A DNA stretch of 64,000 bases from Clostridia bacterium (GCA_017409455.1 JAFQSS010000028.1:11007-75006), one strand, 5' to 3'; shown: positions 2,699-57,601, numbered from the stretch's first letter. Made by a program: numbers and translations. Notes: a model not told the origin generated them from the letters alone.

Positions 2699-2750
2699 TA
2701 AAAAGGGACCAGGTCTTAAATTACGTAAAAAGGGACCGGGTCTTTTTTTA
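2699..2750. repeat. GGGACC-N-GGTC palindromic intergenic repeat, 2 units (type 1)
   Basis: AAAAGGGACCAGGTCTTAAATTACGTAAAAAGGGACCGGGTCTTTTTTT immediately after the SPFH stop codon; same core as 10 other loci. Confidence 0.85.
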
Positions 2751-2834
2751 CACAAATTTCACTTCCAAAATTTGCATTTATTTCTAATATGTGTTATAAT
2801 TATAAAGTACAGTTATAAAAAAGAGGTGAAATAA

Positions 2835-3167
2835 ATGACATTATTAGCAATAATATATGTTTTAATTTTTGTGATATTTGCATTAATAGCATATGCAGTA
2901 ATGCAAATCAAATTAGCTGGAATTGAAGTAAAAGATTTTTGGAGCTTTATAGAAGCAAACCAAATTTTAGATAAATTATATGCATTTTCAAAAAAATACG
3001 AAACACTTACTCCCCAACAAAAAGTTGTATATTTAATGGAAGCAGAAAAAGTTTTTACAGCATTTGATAAAATTCCGAATATTGTTTGGGAAGATGAATT
3101 TAAAAAATATGATGAGGTTTTGAAAAAGTATAAAGAAATAAAAGTTGAAAGGTGGATGTCTAGTTAA
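2835..3167 (+). CDS. hypothetical membrane-anchored protein
   Basis: 110 aa ORF with GAGGTG RBS and one N-terminal TM; no recognisable family. Confidence 0.5.
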   Translation: MTLLAIIYVLIFVIFALIAYAVMQIKLAGIEVKDFWSFIEANQILDKLYAFSKKYETLTPQQKVVYLMEAEKVFTAFDKIPNIVWEDEFKKYDEVLKKYKEIKVERWMSS

Positions 3168-3204
3168 TACATCCATCTATCATTTTTTACGAAAGGAAGA
3201 AATT

Positions 3205-4074
3205 ATGGAAGAAAGATTTAAAATGACAAAAAAAGCTGGAATTTATGGAATCCTTGGAAATATATTCTTATTAATTCTTAAAGCCTTCGTAGGTTTTGTA
3301 AGTAAAAGTCAAGCAATGATAGCTGACAGTATAAATAGCGCCGGAGATATCTTTGCATCTATAATGACTTTTATAGGAAATAAAATTGCAAGTGTTCCAG
3401 GAGACGACACTCATAACTTTGGACACGGAAAAGCTGAATATATTTTTTCATTATTTATAGCAATTTCAATGATGTTTGTATCAATAAAAACATTACTTGA
3501 TGCAGTAGCCACACTATTTACTGGAAATCAAATAATATTTTCTTGGTGGTTAGTTATTGTTTGTATAATCACAATAATAATAAAAGCCATTCTTTTCTTT
3601 TATACAAAAAACATGTATAAAAAATATAATAATATTTTATTAGAAGCAAGTATGGCTGACCATAGAAATGATTGTATTATAACTACATTTACTTTGATAT
3701 CAGTATTACTATCTTTAAAAGGTATAACTTGGTTTGATAGCATAGTTGGTATTGGAATATCAGCATGGATATTTAAAACTGGTATAGAAATTTTTATAGA
3801 AAGTTATAACATCTTAATGGATGTTTCTATTGACGAAAAAACAAAAGATATAATTTTAGATTTGGTGCATGCTTATAAAGAAATAAAAGGAATAAATGAA
3901 TTATCATCTACCCCTGTTGGATATCAATATATTATATTTTTAACAATCGCAGTTGATGGAAATATGACAACCTTTGATAGTCATAAATTAGCAGATGATT
4001 TAGAACAAACTATAATAAAATTAGATAAAATTTATAAAGCAATTGTTCATGTTGAACCATATTTTGGAGATTAA
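3205..4074 (+). CDS. cation diffusion facilitator (CDF) family transporter
   Basis: Start moved to MEERFKMTKK (ATG 3205), downstream of the previous stop; CDF motifs ADSINSAGD and HNFGHGKAEY; six TM helices plus a C-terminal cytoplasmic domain. Confidence 0.85.
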   Translation: MEERFKMTKKAGIYGILGNIFLLILKAFVGFVSKSQAMIADSINSAGDIFASIMTFIGNKIASVPGDDTHNFGHGKAEYIFSLFIAISMMFVSIKTLLDAVATLFTGNQIIFSWWLVIVCIITIIIKAILFFYTKNMYKKYNNILLEASMADHRNDCIITTFTLISVLLSLKGITWFDSIVGIGISAWIFKTGIEIFIESYNILMDVSIDEKTKDIILDLVHAYKEIKGINELSSTPVGYQYIIFLTIAVDGNMTTFDSHKLADDLEQTIIKLDKIYKAIVHVEPYFGD

Positions 4075-4079
4075 GGATT

Positions 4080-6509
4080 TTACCCTAATCTCCATTTTTC
4101 ATTTTTCCTTAAGTTTCCTTCTAATATTTCTTCTGAAATCCTATCTTCTACTAAAGTTTGAATTGCTCTTCTTAACGGTCTAGCTCCAAAGTTTTTATCT
4201 ATTCCTTGCTCTAAAACTTCGTTTAAAACACTATCATCTATTTCTACAATATATTTTTGCTCTTCTAATCTCTTTTGAACTTGTCTTATCATAATCTGAG
4301 CTATTTGTTTAATATTCTCATCATTCAATTTATGGAATACTATTATTTCATCTATTCTATTTACAAACTCTGGTCTTAATTCACGTTTTAGCTCTTTTAT
4401 TACCTCTTTTTTGGTTTCTTCGTATTCCTTGTTTTGCACCTTACTAACCTCATCTTCTCCAACTCCAGTACCAATTCCAAAGCCCAATGATTTTCTTTCA
4501 GTAATATGTCTTGCCCCCAAATTTGATGTCATTATAATAACTGTATTTTTAAAATTCACTTCTCTTCCCTGCGAATCAGTCAAATGCCCATCTTCTAAAA
4601 TTTGTAATAATAAATTTGTTACATCTGGATGTGCTTTTTCAATTTCGTCAAATAAAACAACTGAATATGGTTTTCTTCTGATTTTTTCAGTTAATTGTCC
4701 TCCTCCATCAAATCCTACATACCCTGGTGGAGAACCTATTAACTTTGATACAGAATGGGCTTCCATGTATTCTGACATATCCAATCTTATCATTGCATTT
4801 TCATTATCAAATAATATTTCAGCTAAAGCTTTTGATAGTTCTGTTTTTCCAACACCTGTTGGTCCCAAAAACAAAAATGAACCTATTGGTCTTTTAGGAT
4901 CTTTCAATCCTACTCGTCCCCTTCTAATAGCTTTTGCAACAGCTTCTACAGCTTCATTTTGTCCTATTACTCTTTCATGAAGTTTTTCTTCTAAATTTTT
5001 TAATTTCACATTTTCATCTTCAGTCAATTTTTGAACAGGAATCCCTGTCCATTTAGATATAATCTCTGCTATATTTTCTTCATTTATTTCTGCTACATTT
5101 CTATTTTTTGTTTTTTTCCATTTATCATTTTCTTTTTCCAATCTTTCTTTTATTTCTATTTCTTTATCCCTAAACTGTGCTGCCTTTTCAAATTCTTGAT
5201 TATATATCGCCTCTTCTTTCTCTTTTATTGCAATATCCAATCTCCCTTCAAGTAGTTTTATCTCATTAGGTTCTGTAAACATTTTAATTCTAACTTGCGA
5301 AGCAGCTTCATCTATTAAATCAATTGCTTTATCTGGTAAAAATCTATCTGTAATATATCTTATAGATAAATCTACAGCGGCATTTATAGCCTCATCTGTT
5401 ATTTTAACATCATGATGAGCTTCGTATTTATCTCTTATTCCTTTAATTATTTCAATTGTTTGATTTTGTGTTGGTTCATCCACATCAACTGGACTAAATC
5501 TCCTTTCTAACGCAGAATCTTTTTCTATATATTTTCTATATTCTTCTATTGTAGTTGCCCCTATTAATTGTATTTCTCCTCTTGCTAATAAAGGTTTTAA
5601 AATATTTGCTGCATCTATTGCTCCTTCAGCTGCTCCAGCTCCAACTATTGTATGTATTTCATCTATAAATAATATTATATCTCCAGCTTTTTTAACTTCA
5701 TTTAATGCTTTTTTTATACGTTCTTCAAAATCTCCTCTATATTTAGCACCTGCTACCATTCCTGATATGTCCATACTAACAATTCTTTTTTCTTTTAAAC
5801 TTTGTGGAACTTCTCCATACACGATCTTCTCTGCTAAACCTTCAATAATAGCTGTTTTACCTACACCAGGTTCACCAATCAAACAGGGATTATTTTTTGT
5901 CCTTCTCGAAAGAATTTGGATTATTCTTTCTATTTCTTTTTCTCTTCCTACAATATTGTCAAATTTTCCTTCTTCTGCTTGTATAGTCAAATCTTCTCCA
6001 AACTGATTTAAAGTTGATGTATTGGTTGAACTGCCCCTTACCTTAGGAATATCCTTTCCAATTTCCTTATCAGATTCTTCTTCATTTATCACTTTTGCAA
6101 TTTCATTATATATTTTAGGAATTTCTACATTCAATTCTATTATTACTCGTGTAGCAACACAATCCCCTTCTTTCATAATAGCTAATAATAAATGTTCTGT
6201 TCCTATAAAATTATATCCTATTCTTTTAGCTTCTAAAAAAGCATTTTCTAGTATTTTCTTTGTTCTTGGAGTAAAACCCAAAGATTCTTTTATTTTATCT
6301 CCTTTTCCTAATAATTCTTCTATTTTACTTTTTACTTTTTCTTCAGTTATTCCTTTATTTGTTAAAACTTTTGCAGCAATTCCTTCTCCTTCTTTTACTA
6401 AGCCATACAATATGTGTTCTGTGCCTATATAATTATGACCTAATTCTATTGATATATCATTTGCAATTTCTATAACTTTTTTAGCTTTATTGGTGAATTT
6501 GTATATCAT
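4080..6509 (-). CDS. clpC: ATP-dependent Clp protease ATP-binding subunit ClpC
   Basis: 809 aa; duplicated Clp_N repeats, two AAA+ modules (GEPGVGKT, GPTGVGKT) and a UVR-like linker. Confidence 0.9.
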   Translation of the reverse strand: MIYKFTNKAKKVIEIANDISIELGHNYIGTEHILYGLVKEGEGIAAKVLTNKGITEEKVKSKIEELLGKGDKIKESLGFTPRTKKILENAFLEAKRIGYNFIGTEHLLLAIMKEGDCVATRVIIELNVEIPKIYNEIAKVINEEESDKEIGKDIPKVRGSSTNTSTLNQFGEDLTIQAEEGKFDNIVGREKEIERIIQILSRRTKNNPCLIGEPGVGKTAIIEGLAEKIVYGEVPQSLKEKRIVSMDISGMVAGAKYRGDFEERIKKALNEVKKAGDIILFIDEIHTIVGAGAAEGAIDAANILKPLLARGEIQLIGATTIEEYRKYIEKDSALERRFSPVDVDEPTQNQTIEIIKGIRDKYEAHHDVKITDEAINAAVDLSIRYITDRFLPDKAIDLIDEAASQVRIKMFTEPNEIKLLEGRLDIAIKEKEEAIYNQEFEKAAQFRDKEIEIKERLEKENDKWKKTKNRNVAEINEENIAEIISKWTGIPVQKLTEDENVKLKNLEEKLHERVIGQNEAVEAVAKAIRRGRVGLKDPKRPIGSFLFLGPTGVGKTELSKALAEILFDNENAMIRLDMSEYMEAHSVSKLIGSPPGYVGFDGGGQLTEKIRRKPYSVVLFDEIEKAHPDVTNLLLQILEDGHLTDSQGREVNFKNTVIIMTSNLGARHITERKSLGFGIGTGVGEDEVSKVQNKEYEETKKEVIKELKRELRPEFVNRIDEIIVFHKLNDENIKQIAQIMIRQVQKRLEEQKYIVEIDDSVLNEVLEQGIDKNFGARPLRRAIQTLVEDRISEEILEGNLRKNEKWRLG

Positions 6510-6688
6510 TACTTTTCCTCCTTTAAATTTGGGGATGGTCCTTCTTTTTTAGTCATTTGGGCCATTTTTTCAGCATTGTCTTTTTGCTTTGGAAGTGGTA
6601 TCCAAGCAAAATATGTTGATACAAATTCTCCATATTGTGTTGCGTCTTCTCCTACTTCTGGATGTGTTTGCTTTTGTTCTTTATCCAT
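6509..6688 (-). CDS. small hypothetical protein upstream of clpC
   Basis: ORF whose stop overlaps the clpC start; likely start MDKEQKQ after a GAAAGGTAGG RBS; no family recognised. Confidence 0.35.
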   Translation of the reverse strand: MDKEQKQTHPEVGEDATQYGEFVSTYFAWIPLPKQKDNAEKMAQMTKKEGPSPNLKEEK

Positions 6689-10865: not shown

Positions 10866-10966
10866 ATTTACCTCCAAATTAAAAAACTATCACTTACAAT
10901 ATACCACAAATTTCGACAAAAGAAAAGCACTATTTCAATATAGTGCTTTTTCTCTTATTTAAATTT

Positions 10967-11617
10967 TTAGAATTTAAAAGTAAATTTAACTGTTTGTGGT
11001 GTTTCATCATTATAATTTTCTTTAAAGTCTAAATAATAATCAAATGTGTTATTTGAATCAGTAACTATATCATCTGGTACTGAAACCCAAACATAACATG
11101 TGATTGTTTGTAATGATTTAGGAGATGAATAGAAATCATCATCTGTTTCTGATGCGAAAGAAATATTTACATTAGGATATTCATACTTATCATTTAATTT
11201 CAATTTTCCTTCGAAATTACTAAAATCATCAAATGTTGTTGTTAATAAATTTTTGAAAGTTCCTTTTAAAACAATGTATTTTTCGCCATCTTTATCTTGA
11301 TAATATGAGTAAACACCATCAATATCTGGTGGTTTTATTTCATCCATCACAGATACACTTGTAAAAGTTATTTCTGCCATATCTGGAACTACCACTAATT
11401 CATTTAAATTAGCTACTATGTAATCTTTCTTTTTTTCTTCTGTTTTGTTAGTTGTACCTTGATTTAGTTGTTCTTGATTATTTTGTAATTCACCTTGATT
11501 TATATTTTCTTGCTCATTTTTCTCAAAAACCATGGCTAATAGTATCACAATAATTACTATACATATTCCTATAATAAGTCCACTTTTATTTCCCTTTTTC
11601 ACTTCATTTTCATTCAT
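10967..11617 (-). CDS. hypothetical membrane-anchored extracellular protein
   Basis: 216 aa; N-terminal TM, Gln/Asn-rich linker and a beta-rich C-terminal domain. Confidence 0.5.
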   Translation of the reverse strand: MNENEVKKGNKSGLIIGICIVIIVILLAMVFEKNEQENINQGELQNNQEQLNQGTTNKTEEKKKDYIVANLNELVVVPDMAEITFTSVSVMDEIKPPDIDGVYSYYQDKDGEKYIVLKGTFKNLLTTTFDDFSNFEGKLKLNDKYEYPNVNISFASETDDDFYSSPKSLQTITCYVWVSVPDDIVTDSNNTFDYYLDFKENYNDETPQTVKFTFKF

Positions 11618-11741: not shown

Positions 11742-13073
11742 CTATGCATAATTATATTTTTTCCTATTACTAATCAAGAAAATTCCACTCACAATTACAG
11801 CTAAAATTTCAGCCACTACAACAGACAGCCATAAACCATCAAGTCCTAAAAGTAATGGTAGTACAAATATCATGACTATTTGGAATAGTAATGTTCTTAA
11901 ACAAGATATTGCAGCAGATACCACCCCATTGTTTAAAGCTGTAAAAAATGATGATGCAAAAATATTTAATCCACTAATTAAATAAGATAATGAAAATAGT
12001 CTTATTGCTCTTGTTGTTAATTCAAGTAACTCTATATCATAACTTACAAATACCGATGCTAATAGTTTTGATAATAATTCTGCAAGTAAAGTCATAACAA
12101 TAGATGTAATACATATTAATTTCAAGCTTTTCTTTAACAAATTTTTTAATTCATCTGTATTTTCAGCACCATAATGATAACCTATAATTGGTGCAGTTCC
12201 TATAGAATATCCTAAATATGTTCCTACAAATATAAATCCTATATACATTATAACTCCATAGGCAACAACTCCATCTGCACCTGCATATTTCATTAGTTGC
12301 ATATTAAACAATACATTTACCAATGACATTGATAAATTTGTTAACATTTCAGATGAACCATTTACACAGGTTTGTCCAATTGCTTTCCAGTTAAATTTGG
12401 CTTTCTTAAATCTTAGAGGGCTATTATTTTTGCAAACAAAATAAATAAGTGGAATCATACCACCAACTAATTGACTTATTCCTGTTGCTAATGCTGCACC
12501 AAATATACCTAATTTAAACACATACATAAACAAAAAGTCTAAAACCATATTTGTTATTCCTGCACAAATAGAAATTATTAGTCCAAATGTTGGTTTTTCT
12601 GCTACTATTATAAAACTTTGAAAACAGTTTTGTAATACAAACGGAACTAAAAATATTAGTAGAGTTTTTCCATAAGTTGTACAATATTCTAACATACTTT
12701 CATTTGCTCCCAGCATCTTTGCAATTGGTTCAACTAAAGGTATTCCTATTATTGTAAATATAAAACTTATGATAATTAACAAATATATTAGCATAGAGAA
12801 ATATTCTTTTGCTTTTTCTTTATTTCCTTCACCAATTGTTTTTGAAACAATTGCACTACCTCCTGTTCCTATCATAAATCCTATTGTTCCTAATATCATT
12901 AATGCAGGCATTATTAAGTTTACTGCTGCAAACGCATCTGAACCCACAAAGTTTGATACAAATATTCCATCAACTATTCCATAAATTGATGTAAATATCA
13001 TCATTATAATTGTTGGTATTGTAAATCTAATTAATTTTTTATATGTGAAATGTTCTGATAATCCTATTGTCAC
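11742..13073 (-). CDS. MATE family efflux transporter
   Basis: 443 aa with 12 TM helices; N-terminal FTIPTIIMMIFTSIYGIVDGIFVS is typical of MATE/NorM. Confidence 0.85.
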   Translation of the reverse strand: MTIGLSEHFTYKKLIRFTIPTIIMMIFTSIYGIVDGIFVSNFVGSDAFAAVNLIMPALMILGTIGFMIGTGGSAIVSKTIGEGNKEKAKEYFSMLIYLLIIISFIFTIIGIPLVEPIAKMLGANESMLEYCTTYGKTLLIFLVPFVLQNCFQSFIIVAEKPTFGLIISICAGITNMVLDFLFMYVFKLGIFGAALATGISQLVGGMIPLIYFVCKNNSPLRFKKAKFNWKAIGQTCVNGSSEMLTNLSMSLVNVLFNMQLMKYAGADGVVAYGVIMYIGFIFVGTYLGYSIGTAPIIGYHYGAENTDELKNLLKKSLKLICITSIVMTLLAELLSKLLASVFVSYDIELLELTTRAIRLFSLSYLISGLNIFASSFFTALNNGVVSAAISCLRTLLFQIVMIFVLPLLLGLDGLWLSVVVAEILAVIVSGIFLISNRKKYNYA

Positions 13074-19214: not shown

Positions 19215-19541
19215 TTAAACTATTTTTTTCATTTTTTCTGCATTTTTATCTTTAAGTTGTTTTGAAATTGCCAAGTCATAGTCTATTAATGTGTCTAATA
19301 AAAATTTTCTATCTGCTTTTCTATTAGACTCATATTTTTCCCAACGCTTCTCGTTTTCTTCCCAGCGTTTATCATTTTCTTCCCAACGTTTATCATTTTC
19401 TTTCCATCTTCTTAAGTTTTCTTGCCAATGCGATTCTTCTATCTCTCTGCTTTTTTGTATTTCTCTTCTGTTTTCTTTCACCTCATCTTTTAAGTCATTG
19501 ACTATTTTTAATATTTGTACTAACATATCATTACTACTCAT
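19215..19541 (-). CDS. hypothetical coiled-coil protein with (E/K)ENDKRW heptad repeats
   Basis: 108 aa; own TTGACA-18-TATAAT promoter; contains a 21-bp tandem DNA repeat. Confidence 0.6.
   Translation of the reverse strand: MSSNDMLVQILKIVNDLKDEVKENRREIQKSREIEESHWQENLRRWKENDKRWEENDKRWEENEKRWEKYESNRKADRKFLLDTLIDYDLAISKQLKDKNAEKMKKIV
19338..19421 (-). repeat. 21-bp tandem repeat, about 4 units, in-frame inside a CDS
   Basis: ttcccaacgcttctcgttttc / ttcccagcgtttatcattttc / ttcccaacgtttatcattttc / degenerate 4th unit; encodes RWEENDK heptads. Confidence 0.8.
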
Positions 19542-22700: not shown

Positions 22701-22874
22701 GTGGCCGACATGTGGCTTTCCATTTGCAGTTGGTGGTCCATCATAAAATGTGAAATATCTCTGACCTTTGTTCATGTCAAAGTTCTTTTTTACGATGTCT
22801 TTTTTCTTCCACATTTCTGCAACTTCTCTTTCCATTCCTACAAATCCATTTTTCAATTCAACTTTTTTGTACAT
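19737..22874 (-). CDS. ileS: isoleucine--tRNA ligase (long, type 2 form)
   Basis: 1045 aa; class I HIGH-type motif ([11 protein letters not shown]) and KMSKSKGN; CP1 editing domain; Zn-ribbon cysteines. Confidence 0.95.
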
Positions 22875-22890: not shown

Positions 22891-22959
22891 TTACCACGGG
22901 GACGGAGTTAATGGTAAATTTTTAGTTATTTTTTACCATTAAGACCGTCCCTCTGGTAA
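22891..22959. repeat. long inverted repeat built from two type-3 units (TTACCACGGGGACGGAG-TAATGGTAA)
   Basis: ttaccacggggacggagttaatggtaa ...15 nt... ttaccattaagaccgtccctctggtaa; the arms are near-perfect reverse complements; a third copy lies at 43022..43048. Confidence 0.85.
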
Positions 22960-25063: not shown

Positions 25064-25135
25064 AAGGACTGTCCCAAAATTCGCGAAAAAAAGGACCGTC
25101 CCCAATTTCGCGAAAAAGAGGACCGTCCCCAATTT
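25064..25135. repeat. type-2 palindromic repeat, 3 tandem units (AAGGAC-N-GTCCCCAATTTCGCGAA)
   Basis: aaggactgtcccaaaattcgcgaa / aaaaaggaccgtccccaatttcgcgaa / aaagaggaccgtccccaattt; abuts the stop codon of the OFOR beta subunit. Confidence 0.9.
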
Positions 25136-40429: not shown

Positions 40430-40453
40430 AAAAAGGGACCTGGTCCCTTTTTT
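40430..40453. repeat. type-1 palindromic repeat (AAAAAGGGACCTGGTCCCTTTTT)
   Basis: Perfect palindrome starting directly after the serS stop codon. Confidence 0.9.
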
Positions 40454-41335: not shown

Positions 41336-41359
41336 GAAAAAGGGACCTGGTCCTTTTTA
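41336..41359. repeat. type-1 palindromic repeat
   Basis: gaaaaagggacctggtccttttta; overlaps the gltX stop codon (41357..41359). Confidence 0.85.
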
Positions 41360-43006
41360 CCCAATTGCTTTTTCTAATCTTTCAACAATTCTATCTTTAC
41401 CTAAAACTTGCATAATTTCATACATATCAGGTGTATTAGTTCTAGAAGTTAAACCAACTCTAATTGCTGTACTTACATCGCCAACATGAGCTTTATACAT
41501 TCCTGGATTTGCTTTAAATTCTTTAACTTCTCCTGCATATCCCATTTCAACTGCTAATGCTTTAATTTTGTCAAACCAAGTTTGTTTATCATCATTTTCA
41601 TCATAATATTTTTCAATATACAATTTAAAGATTTTTTCTAAGTCTTCTTTATCTGATATTACTTGATATGGATATTCTTGAGCTTTACCATAGAATTTAT
41701 CATCATACATATATTCGATATTTTCTTTAACATCTGACCATTTTGCGATATCTTTTCTAGGCTTTTTATTTCCTCTTTCAATTCCAAATACTTTTAAAGC
41801 ATATTCTTTATCAACTAACATTTCAGCTAATTCTGTATCAAATTCTTTTGCCCATTCTAAAGATTCTTCATAAACAGCTTCAGCAGTCATTTTTGATATT
41901 ACTGTTTTTCCAATGTCTAGTAATTTTACCATATCAAATAATGCACCACTTACACTCATTTTATTTAATTGAAAATCAAATTCTTCCATTTTAGCATCTG
42001 GATTTGCTCTTCTCCAATTTTCAAATGTAGAATTCGCTATGTTTAATAAATATTCTTTTACTGCATCTGAAGGAACACCTTCTTGTTTATAATATTCTAC
42101 AGCTGCTTCTGGGTCTTTTCTTTTACTTAATTTACGTTTTCCACCATTGTCATTTTTCATGATTGGTGAAATATGTGCATATTTAGGAGCTTTAAATCCT
42201 AATTCATGGAATAATTGTAAATGTAATGGTACTGATGATAACCATTCATCACTTCTTATTACATGTGTTGTTCTCATTAAATGATCATCAACTGCATGTG
42301 CGAAATGATATGTTGGTAATCCATCTGCTTTTATTATTACTATATCTAAATCATTTTCTGGGAAGTCTACATTTCCTTTTATTACATCTTTATGTTTGAT
42401 TTTTCTGTCTTCTCTTCCAGGTGATTTAAATCTTATTATATAATTTTCACCATTTTGGATTTTTTCTACCATTTCTTCAACTGTAAGATTTCTACACTTT
42501 GCCCATACTCCATAATATCCTGGTCTTATTTTTGCTGATTCTTGTTTTTGACGTATTTCTTCTCCATCTTCTGGTGTACAGAAACATGGATATGCTTTTC
42601 CTTGTTCTATCATATATTTTGCATATGCTTGATATATTTCTTTTCTTAAACTTTGTTTGAATGGTCCATAATTTCCGATTTCTTCTGTGTCTGAAATCAT
42701 TCCTTCATCAGGAGCCATATCAAAATCCTTTAATGAATTTACAATTCCTGTCACTCCATTTTCAACTTCTCTTTTTTGGTCTGTATCTTCAACTCTTAGG
42801 AAGAATACTCCTCCTGTTTTTTGAGCTACTGTTCTTGCTACTAATGCTTGATATAGACCACCTATATGTACAAACCCTGTTGGGCTAGGAGCAAATCTTG
42901 TTACAATTGCTCCTTCTGGTAAATTTCTCTCAGGGTATTTTTCTTCATAATATGATATTTCTTTCACATCTGGAAAGATTAAATTTGCTAAATCTTTATA
43001 ATCCAT
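41357..43006 (-). CDS. gltX: glutamate--tRNA ligase (long form)
   Basis: 549 aa; RFAPSPTGFVHIGG (HIGH region) and KLSKRK (KMSKS). Confidence 0.88.
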   Translation of the reverse strand: MDYKDLANLIFPDVKEISYYEEKYPERNLPEGAIVTRFAPSPTGFVHIGGLYQALVARTVAQKTGGVFFLRVEDTDQKREVENGVTGIVNSLKDFDMAPDEGMISDTEEIGNYGPFKQSLRKEIYQAYAKYMIEQGKAYPCFCTPEDGEEIRQKQESAKIRPGYYGVWAKCRNLTVEEMVEKIQNGENYIIRFKSPGREDRKIKHKDVIKGNVDFPENDLDIVIIKADGLPTYHFAHAVDDHLMRTTHVIRSDEWLSSVPLHLQLFHELGFKAPKYAHISPIMKNDNGGKRKLSKRKDPEAAVEYYKQEGVPSDAVKEYLLNIANSTFENWRRANPDAKMEEFDFQLNKMSVSGALFDMVKLLDIGKTVISKMTAEAVYEESLEWAKEFDTELAEMLVDKEYALKVFGIERGNKKPRKDIAKWSDVKENIEYMYDDKFYGKAQEYPYQVISDKEDLEKIFKLYIEKYYDENDDKQTWFDKIKALAVEMGYAGEVKEFKANPGMYKAHVGDVSTAIRVGLTSRTNTPDMYEIMQVLGKDRIVERLEKAIG

Positions 43007-43021: not shown

Positions 43022-43048
43022 TTACCATTATCTCCGTCCCCGTGGTAA
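43022..43048. repeat. type-3 repeat unit (TTACCATTATCTCCGTCCCCGTGGTAA)
   Basis: Single copy in the 46-nt rnj-gltX spacer; near-identical to the arms of the 22891..22959 hairpin. Confidence 0.8.
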
Positions 43049-45525: not shown

Positions 45526-45700
45526 TTAATTGTCAAAAATGCGTTTTTCTAATTCTTCAACAGTTCCATGTTCTATAAATTTATCTGGATATGCATAAGT
45601 TTGTATTTTTATATCTAGTAATTTATTATCGATAATCAATTCTTTTACAGCGGTTCCAAGCCCATTTATTTTAGTTCCATCTTCTATTGTAATAACATTT
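45526..45700 (-). pseudogene. dxs: C-terminal remnant of 1-deoxy-D-xylulose-5-phosphate synthase
   Basis: ITIEDGTKINGLGTAVKELIIDNKLLDIKIQTYAYPDKFIEHGTVEELEKRI matches only the last ~58 aa of a ~620-aa Dxs; upstream it runs straight into the repeat 45722..45774. Confidence 0.5.
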
Positions 45701-45721
45701 TTTGTTTTTTCAATACTTGAT

Positions 45722-45774
45722 AATTTGGGGACGGTCCTTTTTTTCGCGAATTTTGGGACAGTCCTTTTTTTCAC
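45722..45774. repeat. type-2 palindromic repeat, 2 tandem units
   Basis: aatttggggacggtcctttttttcgcgaa / ttttgggacagtcctttttttcac. Confidence 0.9.
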
Positions 45775-45854
45775 ATTTTAACATACTATTCATGTTTCAA
45801 CAAGATTAGATATAAAAATATCACTATTCATACGAATAATGATATTTTTATTTA

Positions 45855-46234: not shown

Positions 46235-46260
46235 CGCAAAAAGGGACCTGGTCCCTTTTT
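46235..46260. repeat. type-1 palindromic repeat
   Basis: cgcaaaaagggacctggtcccttttt, 2 nt after the stop of the M23 (SpoIIQ-like) gene. Confidence 0.9.
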
Positions 46261-46262: not shown

Positions 46263-47063
46263 CTATTTTAAATGAATTGTAGGGTCTAAATATTCACCAT
46301 CTTTTAATAATTCAAAATGAAGATGGCATTCCATATTACTTTCAAATGAAGCTGTATTTCCTACTGTTCCTATAGTTTGTCCTTGTGTAACTTCTTCTCC
46401 TTCAACAACAAATTCTGCTGTTAATAGATTTGAATATACTGTTTCATATCCTTGCTCATGTGTAATTACAACTGTTAACCCATATCTTGGGTCATTTACA
46501 ATTGATTTAACAACTCCATCGGCAGCTGATTTTATTACACTTGTTTTGTCTGCTTTTATATCTATAGCAGTATGTGTAATCCATTCTTTTAAAGTTTCAG
46601 AATAAATTAAGTTATCTTTTGCATATTCACAGATTATCTCTCCTTCTGTAGGTTTTGCAAAAGTTATTTCTTTTTTATTTTCTGTAACTTCGTTTTCTGT
46701 TGGTGCATTAGTGTCTGTTACTGTATCTGGTTCATCTGGTGTGACAGTTGTTTCTGGTTGTTGGGCATCTTGAACAACTTCAGTATTTGTTTCTTTAGTT
46801 TCATTTGATGGCACTTCTTCACTTGGTATTTCAGTTTGTGTTGAGCTTTGTTGTTCTTCTACTGTTTTTCCCATTTCTGTATTAACAGTTTCTGTCTTGT
46901 TTTGAGTCTCTTTGCTAAATTGATCAGCATTTTCTATTCTAACTCCTGTTTTAGTTGACATATACATAATGATTCCTATTGATATTGCTAGTAAAATAAA
47001 AATTACTGTTCCAACATATATGAACATATTATCATTTTCTATAAATCTTTTTCCTCTTTTCAT
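46263..47063 (-). CDS. spoIIQ: M23/LytM-domain membrane protein, SpoIIQ-like
   Basis: 266 aa; N-terminal TM, low-complexity linker, LytM domain with intact H..D (HTAIDIKA) and HLHFE motifs; immediately downstream of spoIID, as I recall for C. difficile. Confidence 0.55.
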   Translation of the reverse strand: MKRGKRFIENDNMFIYVGTVIFILLAISIGIIMYMSTKTGVRIENADQFSKETQNKTETVNTEMGKTVEEQQSSTQTEIPSEEVPSNETKETNTEVVQDAQQPETTVTPDEPDTVTDTNAPTENEVTENKKEITFAKPTEGEIICEYAKDNLIYSETLKEWITHTAIDIKADKTSVIKSAADGVVKSIVNDPRYGLTVVITHEQGYETVYSNLLTAEFVVEGEEVTQGQTIGTVGNTASFESNMECHLHFELLKDGEYLDPTIHLK

Positions 47064-49350: not shown

Positions 49351-49714
49351 ATTGCACCTCCTTGATAATTTGGGGACGGTCCTTTTTTTCACGAATTTTG
49401 GGACAGTCCTTCCTTTCAGGAATAATTCTTTGTATCCCACTCATTTCAAATATTTTTCTTACTGGTGTTGTCATGTTTGCGACTTGAACTTTTCCACCTA
49501 GCATATTAGCTAACTTATACCTTCCTATGATTAGCCCTATTCCTGCACTATCCATAAAAGAAACATTGTTAAAATCAAATATAATTTCTTTTGGCATGTA
49601 TCTTTCAATTTCATTATCTAATTTCCTCCTTATCTTTTGTGCTGTACATTCATCTATTTCTTCATCCATTTTGAAGATTAATTGCTTGTCGTCTTTTTTA
49701 TAGAAACTTTCCAT
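49343..49714 (-). CDS. spoIIAA: anti-sigma-F factor antagonist SpoIIAA (STAS domain), C-terminus encoded by a repeat element
   Basis: STAS core with phospho-serine motif ([17 protein letters not shown]). After MSGIQRIIP, the last ~22 aa ([24 protein letters not shown]) are translated from repeat 49367..49416. Confidence 0.8.
49367..49416. repeat. type-2 palindromic repeat, 2 tandem units, inside the spoIIAA 3' end
   Basis: aatttggggacggtcctttttttcacgaa / ttttgggacagtccttcctttc. Confidence 0.9.
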
Positions 49715-49819: not shown

Positions 49820-49896
49820 AAGCAAAAAAAGAAAGCACAAACTTGAAATTTCAAATTTATGCTTTCTTTTAGGTTGTGTTTTTTCAGTGAGCAGTG

Positions 49897-50682
49897 CTAC
49901 TTTAAAAGCACCAAAACTCCAGAGCTGTCGAATTGAATATGGTACGGATCATAGTTGTAACTGACACAAGCCACAGGATAATTGCTCCCATTATCATTGA
50001 AATTACCGCCCACCAGCGCATAACCGCCTTCACGGGTTACAATTTTGTAGCTGTTCCCCTGTCCATCACAGAATCCACCACACTTTCTTGCTCCCGTTTT
50101 TTCAATAGAATGAGTAGCTCCAGGTGCATTCCTGTAGTTACCTGCACTCGAAGAATCATTTGCAACATAGTCGAGTGTCCACAGACCATTTACGATGCGC
50201 AAAGCATACCAGATAAACAGTTCATGCAGATTGCTCAAACGAGAGTCCCTTTCGGGCGCATACTCTTTTGCTATCTGCATCCACTGGTTGCAAGAAAATC
50301 TTACGCCTACATCTTGATTAGCCTCATAGTAAACCTTTTCTTTATGAACGGATGGTTCCATATGGGCAATCCAGTAGTCATAATTGACTGCTTTAATTGC
50401 TTCTCTGACTCTTGTCAGAAAACTTTTTTCTCCGTCATTTTTTCCTTTTTGTTTTGCGAGCCAGTTCTTCACTTTTTCTCTATCTTCTACAGTGATTTTA
50501 GTGAAGAATTTAGCCTTGTCTCCAGTTTCCTCTACAGTTTCATTCTGTGAAAAAGTAGCCTTATCCTTCGACTTTTCAGAAGAATTAGGAATCAACCGTA
50601 AGATCTGTTCTCCATTTTCTACTGAGCTTAAAGTATAATGCATTCCTTCTGGTGTTTTTAACACAACTTCAAACTGTTCCAT
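49897..50682 (-). CDS. DGR target protein 1 (C-type-lectin/FGE-like fold inferred; VR1 at C-terminus)
   Basis: AAAGGAGG RBS before MEQFEVVLKTPEGMHY (track ORF begins 15 codons earlier); paralogue of 52550..53293; own TTGCAA-17-TATAAT promoter; C-terminal GGYALVGGNFNDNGSNYPVACVSYNYDPYHIQFDSSGVLVLLK. Confidence 0.85.
   Translation of the reverse strand: MEQFEVVLKTPEGMHYTLSSVENGEQILRLIPNSSEKSKDKATFSQNETVEETGDKAKFFTKITVEDREKVKNWLAKQKGKNDGEKSFLTRVREAIKAVNYDYWIAHMEPSVHKEKVYYEANQDVGVRFSCNQWMQIAKEYAPERDSRLSNLHELFIWYALRIVNGLWTLDYVANDSSSAGNYRNAPGATHSIEKTGARKCGGFCDGQGNSYKIVTREGGYALVGGNFNDNGSNYPVACVSYNYDPYHIQFDSSGVLVLLK
49908..50023 (-). repeat. DGR variable region VR1
   Basis: 116 nt, colinear with TR and without indels; 16 mismatches, 15 of them at TR adenines (coding strand). 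Confidence 0.9.
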
Positions 50683-50966
50683 TGTTTTCCTCCTTTTGTT
50701 ATAATCGTCAGTTTTTCTACATGACACTTTGTCATACTTTGTTATTATAACATATTATGTATGCTTTTGCAAATTCTTCAAGTACTACATCTCTATCGCA
50801 ATATAAAAAAGCATATATATATTCAATTTCTTAAATTTACTAACATATCTGCTTTTATAATTCATATTTACTTAAAATTTCTTTTAAGAAGGAATAGACT
50901 TCCTTTAATATCTAATAAATGTACTGTATATATTCCTTAAAATATATAATCTCGCTTAATATTAGA

Positions 50967-51082: not shown

Positions 51083-51100
51083 TAAAAACCCAATTTAAGT

Positions 51101-52114
51101 CTATCCCTCTATATAAAACATACTTTTTCTTAAATTAAAAGAATCTGCATGTTTAACATAGCCTAGCCAACCTGCTATACTTCGTTGTATTTCAGGTAAT
51201 GTTATTTTTCCTTGTTTTAATAGCTTTGTATATCTCTTTAGTTTTCTTTTCATTCTACATTTACTTGTATGCCTTATTTTCATTCTTTTTTCATTGATTT
51301 TGTATCCACAAAAATTAACCCCTTGTATATCTTTAAAAATTCTTGTTTTTGAATTTAGCTGTAACCTTAATTTTTCTTCTAAAAATATATTTATAGATTG
51401 TAGCCATTCCTTTGCTCTTTCTTTATTCTCACACAATATGACTATATCATCCATATATCTATAATAATATTTGCATTTTAAAGTATGTTTAGAATATTGG
51501 TCTAATTCGTTTAAATATATATTTGCAAACATTTGCGAAGTATAGTTTCCTAATGGCAATCCTTTCATTCCTTCAGTGGATAGCAAAATTTCCCTTATCA
51601 GCCATAATAATTTCTTGTCTCTTATTTTTCTTTTTAAGATTTCCCAAAGAATTCTTTTATCTATATTTTGAAAATATTTAGAAATATCCATCTTTAATAT
51701 ATAGTAGTTATACCATTTGAACTTTGCACTTCTCATTCCTTTTTGCACATCTTTTGAAGCTTTGTGCATCCCTCTTCCTTCTATTCCTGCATATGTGGTA
51801 TTGATAAATTGCGTTACAAAATATGGCTTTATAAAATTTTCTACACACCACTGATGTACAATTCTATCTTTATAACTAGCAGCCCTAATAATCCTTTCTT
51901 TTGGTTCATATACTTTAAATTTTCTATATTTCCCTGGTTTATATGTACATTCTTTTAGATGCTTCTCGAGTTCTAGTAATTCTTGTTCTAATTTTAATTC
52001 AAAAATTATTACATCTCTTTTTTCTCTTTTTCCTCTTCTTGCTTTTTTATGTGCTAATAATAATTTTTCGAATGAAACACATTCTTCATATTTATTTCTT
52101 ATTGTTTTAGGCAT
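51101..52114 (-). CDS. DGR-type reverse transcriptase
   Basis: 337 aa; RT motifs incl. YRYMDDIVIL (YxDD) and LPLGNYTSQMFANIYLNELD (the [I/L]GxxxSQ motif characteristic of DGR RTs); no maturase, endonuclease or intron RNA domains. Confidence 0.9.
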   Translation of the reverse strand: MPKTIRNKYEECVSFEKLLLAHKKARRGKREKRDVIIFELKLEQELLELEKHLKECTYKPGKYRKFKVYEPKERIIRAASYKDRIVHQWCVENFIKPYFVTQFINTTYAGIEGRGMHKASKDVQKGMRSAKFKWYNYYILKMDISKYFQNIDKRILWEILKRKIRDKKLLWLIREILLSTEGMKGLPLGNYTSQMFANIYLNELDQYSKHTLKCKYYYRYMDDIVILCENKERAKEWLQSINIFLEEKLRLQLNSKTRIFKDIQGVNFCGYKINEKRMKIRHTSKCRMKRKLKRYTKLLKQGKITLPEIQRSIAGWLGYVKHADSFNLRKSMFYIEG

Positions 52115-52463
52115 TTTTTGCCTCCAACGCCTTGATTAATCCTCCTAACATTTTTCCTATTTCATTTAACAATTCATTACTATACTTATATTTCTTTTCA
52201 TCAATCCATTTTTGATTATACATTATTCTTATACAAATTCTTTGATAATATATATTACTATCAACAATATTATATATTTGTAATCTTTTATTTTTATCAA
52301 CCTTGCTCGCAAGAAGAATGTGTTTTAGCATTTCATACATACTTGTTTTTATTTCTGTTCCTATACTAAATTTTTCTGTTCTTGGTAATTTCAATAATAT
52401 TGTTAACATGTATTCTATGTATTTTTCAATTTTTACTATTATAACTAATTTATTATCATTCAT
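52107..52463 (-). CDS. avd: Avd-like four-helix-bundle accessory protein
   Basis: 118 aa from MNDNKLVII (GGGGGG RBS); basic helical protein whose stop overlaps the RT start by 8 nt, the usual avd position. Confidence 0.75.
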   Translation of the reverse strand: MNDNKLVIIVKIEKYIEYMLTILLKLPRTEKFSIGTEIKTSMYEMLKHILLASKVDKNKRLQIYNIVDSNIYYQRICIRIMYNQKWIDEKKYKYSNELLNEIGKMLGGLIKALEAKNA

Positions 52464-52549
52464 TTTATTTCCCCCCATAAAAAATAAAAAGAGAGAAACC
52501 TGAATTTTCAAATTTCTCTCTTTTGTTAGATTGTGTTCAGTGGTCAGTG

Positions 52550-53293
52550 CTACTTCAAAAGCACCAAAACTCCAGAGCTGTAGGACTGAATATCGTATGG
52601 ATGACTGTTGTAATTGACATCCGCCACAGGATAATTGTGACCATTATTATTGTAATACCCGCCCACCAGCGCATAACCGCCTTCGCGGGTTACAATTTTG
52701 TAGCTATTACCCTGTCCATCACAGAATCCGCCACACTTTCTTGCCCCAGTTTTTTCTAGAGAATGAGTAGCTCCAGGTGAATTCCTGTAGTTCCCTACGA
52801 TCGAAGAATCATTTGCAACATAATCGAGTGTCCACAGGCGGTTCACAATACGCAAAGCATACCAGATGAAGAGCTCATACTCGTTGCTCAAGCGAGAGCC
52901 TCTTTCAGGCGCATACTCTTTTGCCATCTTAATCCACTCGTTGCAGGAAAATCCTACGCCTACAGCATTACCTTCAGCATAATAAATTTTCCCCTCTGTG
53001 ACAGAAGGTTCCAGATTTGCAATCCAGTAGTCGTAATCAACTGCTTTAAGTGCATTTCTGACTCTTTTCAGAAAACTTTTTTCTCTTTCATTTTCGCTTT
53101 TTTGTTTCACCAGCCAGATTTTCACCTTTTCTCTGTCTTCTGCAGTAATTTGGGTGAAAAATTTAGCTTTGTCCCCGGACTTTTCAGAAGAATCGGGAAC
53201 CAACCGTAGTATCAGTTCTCCATTTTCTCCTATAGCTGCCTCATAGTGCATATCCTGAGGTGCTTCTAACACAACCTTTCTTAACCGTTCCAT
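52550..53293 (-). CDS. DGR target protein 2 (paralogue of target 1; VR2 at C-terminus)
   Basis: 247 aa; MERLRKVVLEAPQDMHY...; same 5' UTR/RBS as target 1; TTGAAA-17-TATAAT promoter overlapping the dtd 3' end. Confidence 0.85.
   Translation of the reverse strand: MERLRKVVLEAPQDMHYEAAIGENGELILRLVPDSSEKSGDKAKFFTQITAEDREKVKIWLVKQKSENEREKSFLKRVRNALKAVDYDYWIANLEPSVTEGKIYYAEGNAVGVGFSCNEWIKMAKEYAPERGSRLSNEYELFIWYALRIVNRLWTLDYVANDSSIVGNYRNSPGATHSLEKTGARKCGGFCDGQGNSYKIVTREGGYALVGGYYNNNGHNYPVADVNYNSHPYDIQSYSSGVLVLLK
52561..52676 (-). repeat. DGR variable region VR2
   Basis: 116 nt, colinear with TR; 13 mismatches, 12 at TR adenines. Confidence 0.9.
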
Positions 53294-53372
53294 TGTTTTC
53301 CTCCTTTTGTCATTATCAACAGTTTTCTACATAGCATTTGCTAGTATGCTAATTATTATATCACGTATTTCC

Positions 53373-55503: not shown

Positions 55504-56139
55504 CTAATCTTTTTTCTTGAAACTTAATTTATTTTCTGTTCCATTTAATATTCTTTGTATATTACTTCTATGATTAAATGCTACTATTACAGCTAAAATT
55601 ACACTATATATAAAATATCCACTTCCTTCTGATACTATGAAGTTAGTATTATTAAATAATACTAATATAGGAAACAATATCGCTGCTCCTACTGAGCCCA
55701 TTGATACCATTTTTGTTAATGCCATTAATACTAATGCAAATACTAAACATATTAATCCTATTTTCCAGTTTGTCATTAATAATACACCTAATGATGTTGC
55801 AACACCTTTTCCTCCTTTAAATCCAAAGAATATTGGAAATGTATGTCCAACTACAACAAGTATTCCTGCTACTTGTACTAATAATGCTTTGTCTGAATTT
55901 TTTGCGATTACTCCAACTATTACTGCAAATAGTATTGCTGCTACTCCTTTTAATGCATCTCCTAATAATGTTAATGCTGCTGCTTTTTTCCCTACTGAAC
56001 GCAACATGTTTGTTGCTCCTGCATTTCCGCTTCCTTTTTCTCTTACATCAAATCCTGCCATTTTTTTACTTATTATTACTGAAAAACTTATACTTCCTAA
56101 TAAATATGCTACTAACCCTACTATTATATATGCTGCCAT
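55504..56139 (-). CDS. plsY: glycerol-3-phosphate acyltransferase PlsY
   Basis: 211 aa; GSGNAGATN and FKGGKGVAT motifs. Confidence 0.9.
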   Translation of the reverse strand: MAAYIIVGLVAYLLGSISFSVIISKKMAGFDVREKGSGNAGATNMLRSVGKKAAALTLLGDALKGVAAILFAVIVGVIAKNSDKALLVQVAGILVVVGHTFPIFFGFKGGKGVATSLGVLLMTNWKIGLICLVFALVLMALTKMVSMGSVGAAILFPILVLFNNTNFIVSEGSGYFIYSVILAVIVAFNHRSNIQRILNGTENKLSFKKKD

Positions 56140-56155
56140 TATAATTTCCTCCTCT

Positions 56156-56207
56156 AATTTGGGGACGGTCCTTTTTTTCGCGAATTTGGGGACGGTCCTT
56201 TTTTTTA
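56156..56207. repeat. type-2 palindromic repeat, 2 tandem units
   Basis: aatttggggacggtcctttttttcgcgaa / tttggggacggtccttttttttac; fills the der-plsY spacer and overlaps the der stop. Confidence 0.9.
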
Positions 56208-57533
56208 CATTTCTTTCTCTAATTTTTCTCTTACTATCACCCTAACTGGTGTTCCTTCTAATCCAAATTCTTTTCTTATTTGATTTACTAAATATCTTTC
56301 ATATGAAAAATGGAATAGTTCTTTATTATTTACGAATATTACAAATGTTGGTGGTTTTGTGCTTGCTTGTGTTCCATATAATATTTTTAATCTTTTTCCT
56401 TTATCTGTTGGTGGTTGAACTATTGCAATAGCTTCATTTATTACTTGATTTAATACTGATGTTGAAATTCTCATTGCATTTTGTTCTGCCACATGATTTA
56501 TCATATCAAATAACTTGTCCACTCTCTGTCCTGTTTTTGCTGATATGAATATTACTGGTGCATAAGATAAATATGATAATTTCTCATATATTTCTTTTTT
56601 ATATCTTTCTAATGTTCCTGTTTCTTTTTCATATTCATCCCATTTATTTACTACTATAATTATTCCTTTTCCAGCTTCATGTGCTTCTCCCGCGATTTTA
56701 GCATCTTGATCAGTTACACCTTCGTTTGCATCTATCATCATCAAACATACATCAGCTCTTTCAATTGCTAAAAGAGTTCTCATTATACTGAATTTTTCTA
56801 TTGATTCTGTTACTTTACTTTTTCTCCTAATTCCAGCTGTATCTATTAATACATATTTTCCATGTTCATTTTCATATTCAGTATCTATTGCATCCCTTGT
56901 TGTTCCAGCAATTGAACTTACTATTGTTCTATTTTGTCCCAATATTTTATTTATTAATGATGATTTTCCTACATTTGGCTTTCCTATTACGGCAACTCTT
57001 ATTCTGTCATCTTCATCTTCACCTTCTTGTTTTTCAGGGAAGTTTTCATATATTGCATCTAAAACATCACCTATACCTAAAGCGTTTGCTGCTGATACAG
57101 GATGAGGTTCACCTATTCCCAAATTATAAAATTCATATATCTCATTTTTGTCTCTACTCATATCATCAGCTTTGTTACATACTAATACAACTGGTTTATG
57201 AGATTTTTTTAACATCATTGCTATTTCTTCATCTGCAGCTGTTACACCTTGTTTAATATCTGTTAAAAATATTATAACATCCGCAATATCTATTGCAATT
57301 TTTGCTTGTTCTCTCATTTGAGAAATAATAATATCATCTGATTCTGGTTCTATACCTGCTGTGTCTACAATTGTGAAGTTTCTTCCTCTCCAGTTTGTTT
57401 CCGCATACACTCTATCTCTAGTTACTCCTGGCGTGTCTTCTACTATTGATATTCTACTTCCTACTATATAATTAAAAAATGTTGATTTTCCTACATTCGG
57501 TTTTCCTATTATTGCTACTGTTGGTTTTGACAT
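56205..57533 (-). CDS. der: ribosome biogenesis GTPase Der (EngA)
   Basis: 442 aa; two tandem GTPase domains (GKPNVGKST twice) plus a KH-like C-terminus. Confidence 0.95.
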   Translation of the reverse strand: MSKPTVAIIGKPNVGKSTFFNYIVGSRISIVEDTPGVTRDRVYAETNWRGRNFTIVDTAGIEPESDDIIISQMREQAKIAIDIADVIIFLTDIKQGVTAADEEIAMMLKKSHKPVVLVCNKADDMSRDKNEIYEFYNLGIGEPHPVSAANALGIGDVLDAIYENFPEKQEGEDEDDRIRVAVIGKPNVGKSSLINKILGQNRTIVSSIAGTTRDAIDTEYENEHGKYVLIDTAGIRRKSKVTESIEKFSIMRTLLAIERADVCLMMIDANEGVTDQDAKIAGEAHEAGKGIIIVVNKWDEYEKETGTLERYKKEIYEKLSYLSYAPVIFISAKTGQRVDKLFDMINHVAEQNAMRISTSVLNQVINEAIAIVQPPTDKGKRLKILYGTQASTKPPTFVIFVNNKELFHFSYERYLVNQIRKEFGLEGTPVRVIVREKLEKEM

Positions 57534-57552
57534 TTTCTACCTGCCTTTCTTA

Positions 57553-57601
57553 AATTGGGACCTGGTCCCTTTTTGCGCAAAAAGGGACCGGGTCTGTTTT
57601 T
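57553..57601. repeat. type-1 palindromic repeat, 2 units
   Basis: aaattgggacctggtccctttttgcgcaaaaagggaccgggtctgttttt, between the M50 protease gene and der. Confidence 0.9.

Follow-up and report, generated by a model that had tools for sequence, protein, structure and literature searches.

A probable REP/REPIN-like family of small palindromic repeats in uncultured Clostridia

A 64,000-nucleotide (nt) stretch of DNA from a Clostridia bacterium (GCA_017409455.1, JAFQSS010000028.1:11007-75006; hereafter the window) carries short GC-rich palindromic repeats built around a GGGAC-N-GTCC core at 12 loci. We conclude that these elements are probably a lineage-specific family of small, non-autonomous palindromic repeats of the REP (repetitive extragenic palindrome)/REPIN type. 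An earlier note on this DNA had described them as REP/BIME-like, a view that is supported by insertion polymorphism between related genomes and by the occurrence, in relatives, of such repeats on both sides of a Y1 transposase gene. The family is new in its sequence and known in its kind, i.e., repeats of the REP or terminal inverted repeat (TIR) type associated with a RAYT/TIRYT-type Y1 transposase, and not a new kind of system.

Occurrence and common plan of the repeats

The window belongs to a 176-kb scaffold of a spore-forming Firmicute, assembled from a human-gut metagenome. It has a G+C content of 29%, and most of its genes are carried by the minus strand. It contains 16 matches to GGGAC-N0-3-GTCC versus 0.10 expected, a number that was reached by none of 100 shuffled sequences. 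The 21-nt type-2 unit (at most 3 mismatches) has eight matches and the 23-nt type-1 unit has six, with no match expected for either. All three unit types distinguished in the earlier note were recovered by exact and mismatch searches, and every one of the 11 loci listed there lies where it had been placed; the list was not complete, as a degenerate type-2 unit at 6526-6546 had been missed. This brings the family to 12 loci in 64 kb, about one per 5 kb. In a window with a coding fraction of 84%, 12 of 13 loci (11 of the 12 family loci) fall outside called open reading frames (ORFs), and most of them adjoin a stop codon or a ribosome-binding site (RBS), in agreement with the position in short spacers, touching stop codons, that had been described. 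The locus placed inside spoIIAA is indeed a 57-nt in-frame insertion in that gene, and the gene labels were sound as well: the product of the gene at 25134 has a TPP_enzyme_C domain, the gene at 41357 encodes a Glu/Gln-tRNA synthetase and that at 56205 is der. Type-2 units recur with a period of 27 nt. The array at 25064-25135, which is oriented the opposite way, has three of them, and those at 45722-45775, 49367-49423 and 56156-56205 have two each.

The three types share one plan, in which a variable outer inverted repeat and A-rich linkers enclose the core (G)GACCGTCCCC, which reads GGGGACGGTCC on the opposite strand. On the usual mRNA strand type 2 is CGCGAA-AAAAA-GGACCGTCCCC-AAA-TTCGCG, the palindrome TTCGCGAA being common to adjoining units; type 3 is TTACCA-TTAT-CTCCGTCCCC-G-TGGTAA and type 1 is A5-GGGACCNGGTCCC-T5. 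Across genomes at least 12 pairs of outer arms occur around the core, including CGCGAA/TTCGCG, TTACCA/TGGTAA, TGACCCA/TGGGTCA and GGGCAA/TTGCCC, and further TGCACCG/CGGTGCA, TGGAAA/TTTCCA, GACATGTTT/AAACATGTC and ATTCGGAT/ATCCGAAT. The outer arms vary by sub-family and genome, and the core is kept. The covariation of the arms is read from these listed arm families; an objective test of arm pairing was weak (38.8% versus 25.6%, arms of at least 6 nt), diluted by core matches in coding regions and by AT-rich flanks. Because the GGAC-N-GTCC core is self-complementary, units arranged in tandem or head-to-head form long hairpins. Head-to-head type-2 pairs were found in four of the loci fetched from databases (L004, L013, L017, and L021; these loci are numbered with L throughout), and most type-2 copies are direct tandems.

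A scan for the type-2 23-mer in one genome per species (185,579 species) detected it only in two uncultured Clostridia metagenome-assembled genomes (MAGs) and in one 2.3-kb contig binned as Treponema. The related MAG CAKOXV01 holds 20 matches, distributed over 17 loci and 10 contigs, and JAZSAX01 holds three loci. Copies beyond the window, for which the earlier note had suggested a genome-wide search, were thus found in the related MAG CAKOXV01. JAZSAX is 86-95% identical to the window across orthologous stretches, and type-1 copies are kept at orthologous sites of the two with ~90% identity; the CAKOXV loci have no orthologous genes in common with the window.

The loci in the window are as follows, with folding energies and z-scores where calculated.

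2699..2750, plus strand: type-1 doublet, both units degenerate (AAAAAGGGACCAGGTCTT..AAAAAGGGACCGGGTCTTTTTTT), after the stop codon of a Band_7 gene (1799..2698) and before a promoter-like site; the units pair mutually (-19.7 kcal/mol, z = -4.7) and are followed by T7.
6526..6546, minus strand: degenerate single type-2 unit AAGAAGGACCATCCCCAAATT (2 mismatches to the unit, 0 matches expected), just ahead of the RBS that serves the clpC-like gene 4080..6509.
22891..22917 and 22933..22959, unstranded: REPIN-like inverted pair of type-3 units between a DUF1653 gene and the RBS of ileS (19737..22874), laid out as TTACCA-CGGGGACGGAG-TTAA-TGGTAA, a 15-nt spacer and the reverse copy; fold of the pair -35.2 kcal/mol, z = -7.7.
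25064..25135, minus strand: three type-2 units in tandem, with the T-orientation on the mRNA (GGGGACGGUCCUUUUUUU); the array starts at the stop codon that closes the TPP-enzyme gene (25134..26084), with a SpoU methylase gene next; TRF period 27, 2.7 copies; fold -35.5 kcal/mol, z = -5.0.
40430..40453, unstranded: perfect type-1 palindrome AAAAAGGGACCTGGTCCCTTTTT(T) that fills the spacer between serS (39143..40429) and an engB-like GTPase gene; kept in the JAZSAX orthologue (L017:6007); fold -13.3 kcal/mol, z = -3.2; scored terminator-like on the minus strand.
41337..41359, unstranded: type-1 unit that overlaps the gltX stop codon (gene 41357..43006), with a small DUF951 gene downstream; kept in L017:3313.
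43022..43048, minus strand: single type-3 unit, with the stop codon of the RNase J gene on one side and the RBS of gltX on the other; L017 has a diverged variant there.
45722..45775, minus strand: type-2 array of 2 units, A-orientation, followed by a promoter-like TTGAAA-16-TACAAT.
46238..46260, unstranded: perfect type-1 palindrome beyond the stop codon that ends the M23 peptidase gene (46263..47063); scored terminator-like on both strands; fold -13.9 kcal/mol.
49365..49421, minus strand: type-2 array of 2 units, inserted in frame (57 nt) into the 3' end of spoIIAA and ending directly 5' of the spoIIAB RBS; it adds 19 residues to the SpoIIAA tail, and the 6-nt direct repeat AATTAT leaves its boundaries ambiguous.
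56156..56205, minus strand: two perfect type-2 units in tandem, A-orientation; the array separates the stop codon of der from the RBS of plsY.
57552..57601, unstranded: type-1 doublet in the 5' untranslated region (UTR) of der, between a promoter-like TTGCTA-17-TAAAAT and the RBS; fold -23.3 kcal/mol, z = -3.7.

An 82-amino-acid (aa) ORF with a GTG start (45526-45774, minus strand) begins in the type-2 array at 45722 and is labeled Transketolase_C by the gene call (L123 11577..11825); it is probably an artefact of the repeat.

Insertion and turnover at orthologous sites

Comparison of orthologous spacers revealed differences in presence and absence of the sort that the earlier note had envisaged. 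The spoIIAA element is precisely absent from L124 and L128, which encode an identical SpoIIAB and read ..CAAAGAATTAT|CAAGGAGGTGCAATATG (..GAATTAT|CAAGGAGG..) where the window has 57 extra nt. At the same point L127 carries a different, type-1-like doublet that ends at the same nucleotide. For der, 80 orthologous loci from metagenomes, falling into ~34 species-level clusters, could be compared. In most of these clusters the der-plsY spacer measures only 1-6 nt (TAA-N1-6-ATG), with the RBS inside der, and the two-unit array of the window is, therefore, derived. Other variants of the plan occupy the der-plsY slot in six or seven lineages. The der 5' UTR, also mostly empty in relatives (e.g., L023, L024, L030, and L042), holds other variants in L035 and L038, and the spoIIAA-spoIIAB junction likewise holds different variants in several lineages. 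The der-plsY elements of L035 and L038 have their right flank in common and differ in their core, which points to turnover in place. JAZSAX has arrays at two sites where the window carries no array, i.e., directly downstream of ileS and downstream of the DUF951 gene. These comparisons show that the elements are insertions that have recently been gained and lost.

Two further interpretations of the insertion boundaries were considered and rejected. The RBS is not part of the element, as the distance from array to GGAGG varies from 0 to 5 nt and the RBS region of L035, L038, and L042 is the same as that of the repeat-free L054. The 9-nt AAATTAGAG at der-plsY is not a target duplication, because removal of the segment would fuse der to plsY; its left copy is the conserved der C-terminus (E-K-L-E-K-E).

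Closely related contigs also differ within a repeat. At the spoIIAA-spoIIAB junction, L048 and L043 differ by a 15-nt tandem duplication in a single unit (GACCCCAAATTCGCA x2), and, among the repeats that flank Y1 genes (see below), L121 has three units and L120 has two; therefore, the number of units varies between strains. Families without the GGGAC core are found in the same junctions, i.e., in L030-L034 (spoIIAA-spoIIAB), L082-L092 (upstream of der), and L029 (der-plsY). One of these consists of two copies of TGCACGG-A7-GCGATCTC-AGG-TGTGCA and another of ~55-nt repeats (GACTTGGCAGACAAAATTTTGAA..) upstream of der.

Y1 transposase genes in relatives

A hidden Markov model of the IS200/IS605 TnpA, made from four PDB sequences, had no match in 1.16 Mb of fetched loci. 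With the E. coli RAYT (4ER8) as query, one ORF matched, in L072 (1e-5). It matches the Pfam family Y1_Tnp above the cut-off (6e-7), and its best NCBIfam model is REP_Tyr_transpos, with 59 bits; the IS200 model reaches 18-20 bits in two homologues. The L072 ORF has 498 homologues of ~250 residues. Neither the HUH histidines nor the catalytic Tyr vary, and the protein carries a C-terminal helix-turn-helix (HTH)-like extension.

The genomic contexts of nine Y1 homologues were inspected. The gene order ileS, Y1 gene, ABC transporter gene is found in L107-L112 and L116, and the same order in L072, L103-L105, and L106, where ileS is cut by the contig end. IleS of the Y1-bearing relatives is 73-86% identical to that of the window. 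At every Y1 locus examined, the repeat of that same genome lies upstream in the GGGAC orientation and downstream in the GTCCC orientation. The Y1 gene of L110 is enclosed by a perfect inverted repeat of 44 nt, and the situation in L107, L116, L115, L118, and L120 is analogous. The flanking repeats read GACATGTTT-GGGACGTCCC-AAACATGTC in L115 and GGAAAAA-GGGACGGTTC-TTTTTTCC in L118 and L119, while in L120-L122 tandem arrays of 2-3 units, GGAAAnT-GGGACGGTTC-nCTTTTCC, closely like type 2, lie on each side of the gene. The repeat family flanking the L072 gene is also dispersed in that locus (447-700 and 7663). The window family is linked to these flanking repeats by the core and plan that it has in common with L118 and L120-L122; the exact type-2 sequence flanks no Y1 homologue among P0002, P0004, P0015, P0041, P0066, P0077, P0093, and P0094.

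Downstream of ileS the window has a 580-bp segment (19146-19732) that contains a 108-aa ORF (19215..19541, minus strand), made up of tandem repeats of 21 nt (W-E-E-N-D-K-R motifs), and that has an unrelated terminator of its own. This segment is missing from the JAZSAX orthologue, which carries a type-2 array there, and in more distant relatives the same position is that of the Y1 gene.

Orientation and folding

The 20 tandem type-2 arrays of the window, CAKOXV, and JAZSAX are unevenly oriented: 16 have the A-rich strand on the mRNA (A-orientation) versus 4 with the T-rich strand (T-orientation; two-sided binomial p = 0.012), and two of these four have three units. The layout of A-orientation arrays is stereotyped, i.e., stop codon, TG(T/A)TAA or an A-run, two units, AAATTA(G/A/T)CA, and a Shine-Dalgarno sequence within 0-5 nt. 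In the T-orientation a two-unit array folds into a 12-bp stem (-16.4 kcal/mol) followed by U7-8. In the A-orientation the fold (-11 kcal/mol) has no U-run and is no better than that of shuffled sequences (z = -0.96 and -0.17). Type 1 folds with about -13 kcal/mol and ends in U5-6, and its copies were scored as terminators in a consensus terminator scan. The plan of an intrinsic terminator (GC-rich hairpin plus U-run) is, thus, found in type 1 and in T-orientation type-2 arrays, not in the 16 A-orientation arrays. One T-orientation array of JAZSAX lies after the stop codon of ileS, with a good promoter beyond it.

On the RNA, the T-rich orientation would form a stable hairpin with a U-run and may act as an intrinsic terminator after the last gene of a transcription unit. 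The A-rich orientation, with a weaker hairpin and no U-run, may be tolerated inside operons, in the gap that separates a stop codon from the Shine-Dalgarno sequence of the following gene. Because only the T-orientation reads as a terminator, the orientation bias is most simply explained by purifying selection against polar terminators, although strand-specific insertion would give the same bias.

Origin of the repeats

In the explanation that we consider probable, the Y1 enzyme would act on single-stranded hairpin DNA and so disperse the repeats, which would fit both insertion without long target duplications and family-wide turnover in each genome. Several observations weigh against this view. 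The transposase looked for in connection with the repeats does exist in relatives, where a Y1_Tnp/REP_Tyr_transpos-like gene is bracketed by GGGAC-core repeats, but it was found neither in the window nor in ~14 kb beyond it (~78 kb in all, of which ~10 kb via a 99.99% identical contig). The 17 CAKOXV loci (136 kb) also lack a Y1 gene, and downstream of the window's ileS the 108-aa ORF is followed by queA and tgt, without a Y1 gene. The enzyme of the window lineage may sit elsewhere or may be lost, in which case the copies would be relics. The link between transposase and repeats is one of association by flanking, and the L072-type protein scores below the REP_Tyr_transpos cut-off (59 versus 80 bits). 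Classical REPs, moreover, carry a GTAG or CGTC tag outside the stem, which the plan of these elements does not have. The same three junctions (der 5' UTR, der-plsY, and spoIIAA-spoIIAB) are occupied in many lineages, which random transposition does not predict and which needs target preference, turnover in situ or selection. Finally, termination and a role in RNA are predictions from folding only, and, because gene direction coincides with the inferred leading strand in all 20 arrays, terminator selection and strand-specific insertion, the two possible causes of the bias, are confounded and indistinguishable.

Two features are of moderate interest, namely that the arrays are placed so uniformly between a stop codon and an RBS, and that the same junctions are used again across lineages. 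A more specific version of the transposition scenario, which we regard as tentative and rather unlikely, would cover both. The enzyme would target the boundary between stop codon and Shine-Dalgarno sequence, 3' of an AATTA-like motif, and would insert in one orientation units that keep the reading frame; the cell would then use the elements as intercistronic RNA modules. An AATTA-like target would match the 3' end of the element itself and would also explain the head-to-tail growth of arrays, and the frame-keeping units would be those of 27 nt, with 57 nt for the spoIIAA insert. The elements would serve as terminators in one orientation and, in the other, as structured A-rich spacers that uncouple or tune translation downstream. 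The independent reuse of the three junctions would in that case reflect both targeting and selection.

It seems less probable still, and on balance improbable, that the repeats are RNA elements selected by the host, with the link to the transposase incidental. They would then be intercistronic hairpins or terminators acting as 3'-end stabilizers, 5' protective hairpins, RNase sites or translation insulators. This would suit the succession of stop codon, array, 0-5 nt and Shine-Dalgarno sequence in 15 of the 16 A-orientation arrays, the occurrence of different variants at the same three junctions in several lineages, the conservation of type-1 copies between the window and JAZSAX, the stable folds, and the T-orientation copies at the ends of units ahead of promoters. 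However, in most related lineages the junctions are empty (1-6 nt), so that the element is dispensable there, and the two-unit A-orientation fold does not exceed that of shuffles. Compact spacers would force any tolerated insertion into the gap between stop codon and RBS, so that this position needs no function. Function alone also leaves unexplained the near-identical 23-mers across loci and the flanking of Y1 genes.

We consider it very improbable that the repeats are double-stranded DNA sites for a dimeric chromosomal protein, nucleoid-associated or regulatory, that reads GGAC-N-GTCC and TTCGCGAA and for which they would be kept by selection on chromosome organization or global regulation. 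Each unit does contain two exact, symmetric palindromes spaced 13.5 nt from center to center, with a core that is kept across lineages between variable arms, and the REP/BIME elements of E. coli, a different family, bind IHF and gyrase. Yet the flanking genes are unrelated housekeeping genes that form no regulon, orthologous positions are empty in close relatives, a symmetric site needs neither the orientation bias nor the asymmetry of A- and T-runs, and no candidate protein was identified.

A derivation from miniature inverted-repeat transposable elements (MITEs), mobilized in trans through their TIRs by a DDE-type insertion sequence with target-site duplications, is just as doubtful: array ends are inverted (TGATAA...TTATCA) and AATTAT occurs as a 6-nt direct repeat around the spoIIAA insertion, but the right-hand AATTAT belongs to the element consensus (..CCCCAAATTA) and so reads as similarity to the target rather than duplication, and other copies have no consistent duplication. 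Units of 23-27 nt are far under MITE size, and they multiply in tandem. None of the loci showed a DDE transposase with matching ends, and the Y1 HUH protein is the only enzyme whose gene is bracketed by repeats. The combination of TIRs and long target-site duplications that marks DDE-type MITEs, and that the earlier note had taken as decisive against a REP-like nature, was not seen.

Comparison with known repeat families

The statement that the repeats are not a described family is correct for the sequences themselves: a scan of the window with Rfam placed no family over the elements (the only matches were a tRNA-Thr and RT-14), and in the literature the core sequences occurred only in unrelated primers and constructs. 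It does not hold for their kind, as TIR repeats with a GGGGWSAS motif are known from TIRYT genes. These are relatives of RAYT genes with flanking TIRs that share GGGGWSAS, and some of the TIR families are moderately abundant and occur as dimers or clusters (Di Nocera et al., 2013; PMC3733652). The resulting TIRtrons correspond largely to subclass 2.1 of TnpA-Y1, with a C-terminal HTH, and no REP-like sequences were identifiable near the HTH-bearing genes of this subclass (Quentin et al., 2018; PMC6006769). Like TIRtrons, the relatives of the window lineage have a Y1 HUH gene that is longer than classical RAYTs, has an HTH-like C-terminal tail and is bracketed by inverted repeats, which are also dispersed, often as dimers or clusters. 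A G-rich motif near GGGGWSAS is present (GGGGACGG, TGGGACAG, and GGGACACA); judged by eye against the published consensus alone, GGGGACGG, TGGGACAG, and AGGGACAC, the first two of which are cores of the window, agree at 7 of 8 positions each, and no copy agrees at all 8. Unlike TIRtrons, the family here resides in low-GC uncultured gut Clostridia, is dense, forms head-to-tail arrays with a 27-nt period and has its core inside a variable outer stem. The Y1 gene is, moreover, known here from relatives.

The REP/REPIN-RAYT systems of Proteobacteria (Nunvar, 2010, PMC2817692; Bertels and Rainey, 2011, PMC3116915; Ton-Hoang, 2012; Messing, 2012, PMC3479197) resemble the present family in their short extragenic palindromes and in their inverted doublets that form long hairpins (here type 3, 22891-22959). 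They also share genome-specific families, a transposase (here that of relatives) at one, mostly conserved, locus flanked by its own repeats, and sites that lie between genes in the same or in convergent orientation, downstream of coding regions, and at times inside genes. In contrast, the elements described here have no GTAG tag 5' of the stem and their conserved GGGAC/CGTCCC motif is central, between the outer arms. Their arrays are often direct rather than alternating, the Y1 protein reaches 59 of the 80 bits of the NCBIfam RAYT equivalog, and the host belongs to another phylum. Group 1 RAYTs do occur in Clostridia (Bertels et al., PMC5581495).

The REPs tagged with CGTC (Di Nocera et al., 2013) were also considered, as the core contains CGTC (GGAC-CGTC-CCC), with TGTC variants, and as those REPs likewise have no identified transposase. 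They are mainly found in alpha-Proteobacteria and consist of a terminal unpaired CGTC and an 8-9 bp stem whose first two pairs are A/T, with a loop of 4-5 nt and a tail that reads CCA (PMC3733652). In the present elements CGTC has its place between the arms, with CCCAAATT after it; membership of this group was rejected, as the plan of stem, loop and tail does not fit. Bidirectional intrinsic terminators are similar to type 1, an A5/GC-stem/T5-6 palindrome, and to the hairpin and U-run of T-orientation type-2 arrays. Ordinary terminators, however, do not have one stem sequence across loci and genomes, are not gained and lost between strains and have no non-terminating orientation inside operons.

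Implications

Work on REP and RAYT has been almost entirely on Proteobacteria, and the window offers an example of a dense REP-like family in low-GC uncultured Clostridia from the human gut. It also ties to dispersed repeats an HTH-bearing type of Y1 protein that had no REP-like partners in one survey. For the annotation of MAGs it is relevant that ORFs are falsely extended by the elements, as in the SpoIIAA tail and in the 82-aa ORF 45526..45774, and that the elements mimic terminators inside operons. As hot spots of insertion and deletion at the strain level they can be used as strain markers, and the clean pair of filled and empty sites, together with lineage-specific variants in the same slots, is suited to the study of target choice and turnover.

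Neighbouring sequences

Between convergent genes the window has a long hairpin at 41063-41125 (GGGACAGA...TCTGTCCC), which has the GGGAC/GTCCC ends of the family and may belong to it. At the place of this hairpin JAZSAX (L017:3480-5450) has a head-to-head type-2 pair and a gene of 1.8 kb whose product has a signal peptide. A kinase-like gene of 1.2 kb is additionally present between the RNase J gene and gltX in JAZSAX (L017:450-1650). Conversely, the orthologous contig of JAZSAX (L015) lacks a 2.3-kb stretch of the window (10868-13169) that contains two ORFs, 10967..11617 and 11742..13073.

The window also contains a cassette resembling a diversity-generating retroelement (49826-53332), with, on the minus strand, genes for bAvd (52107..52511) and a reverse transcriptase (51101..52114) and the Rfam RNA RT-14 (50808-50967, 78.6 bits). 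It is flanked by two paralogous ORFs (52550..53293 and 49897..50727), neither of which has a match in Pfam; together with their terminators, they are 77.5% identical over 907 nt.

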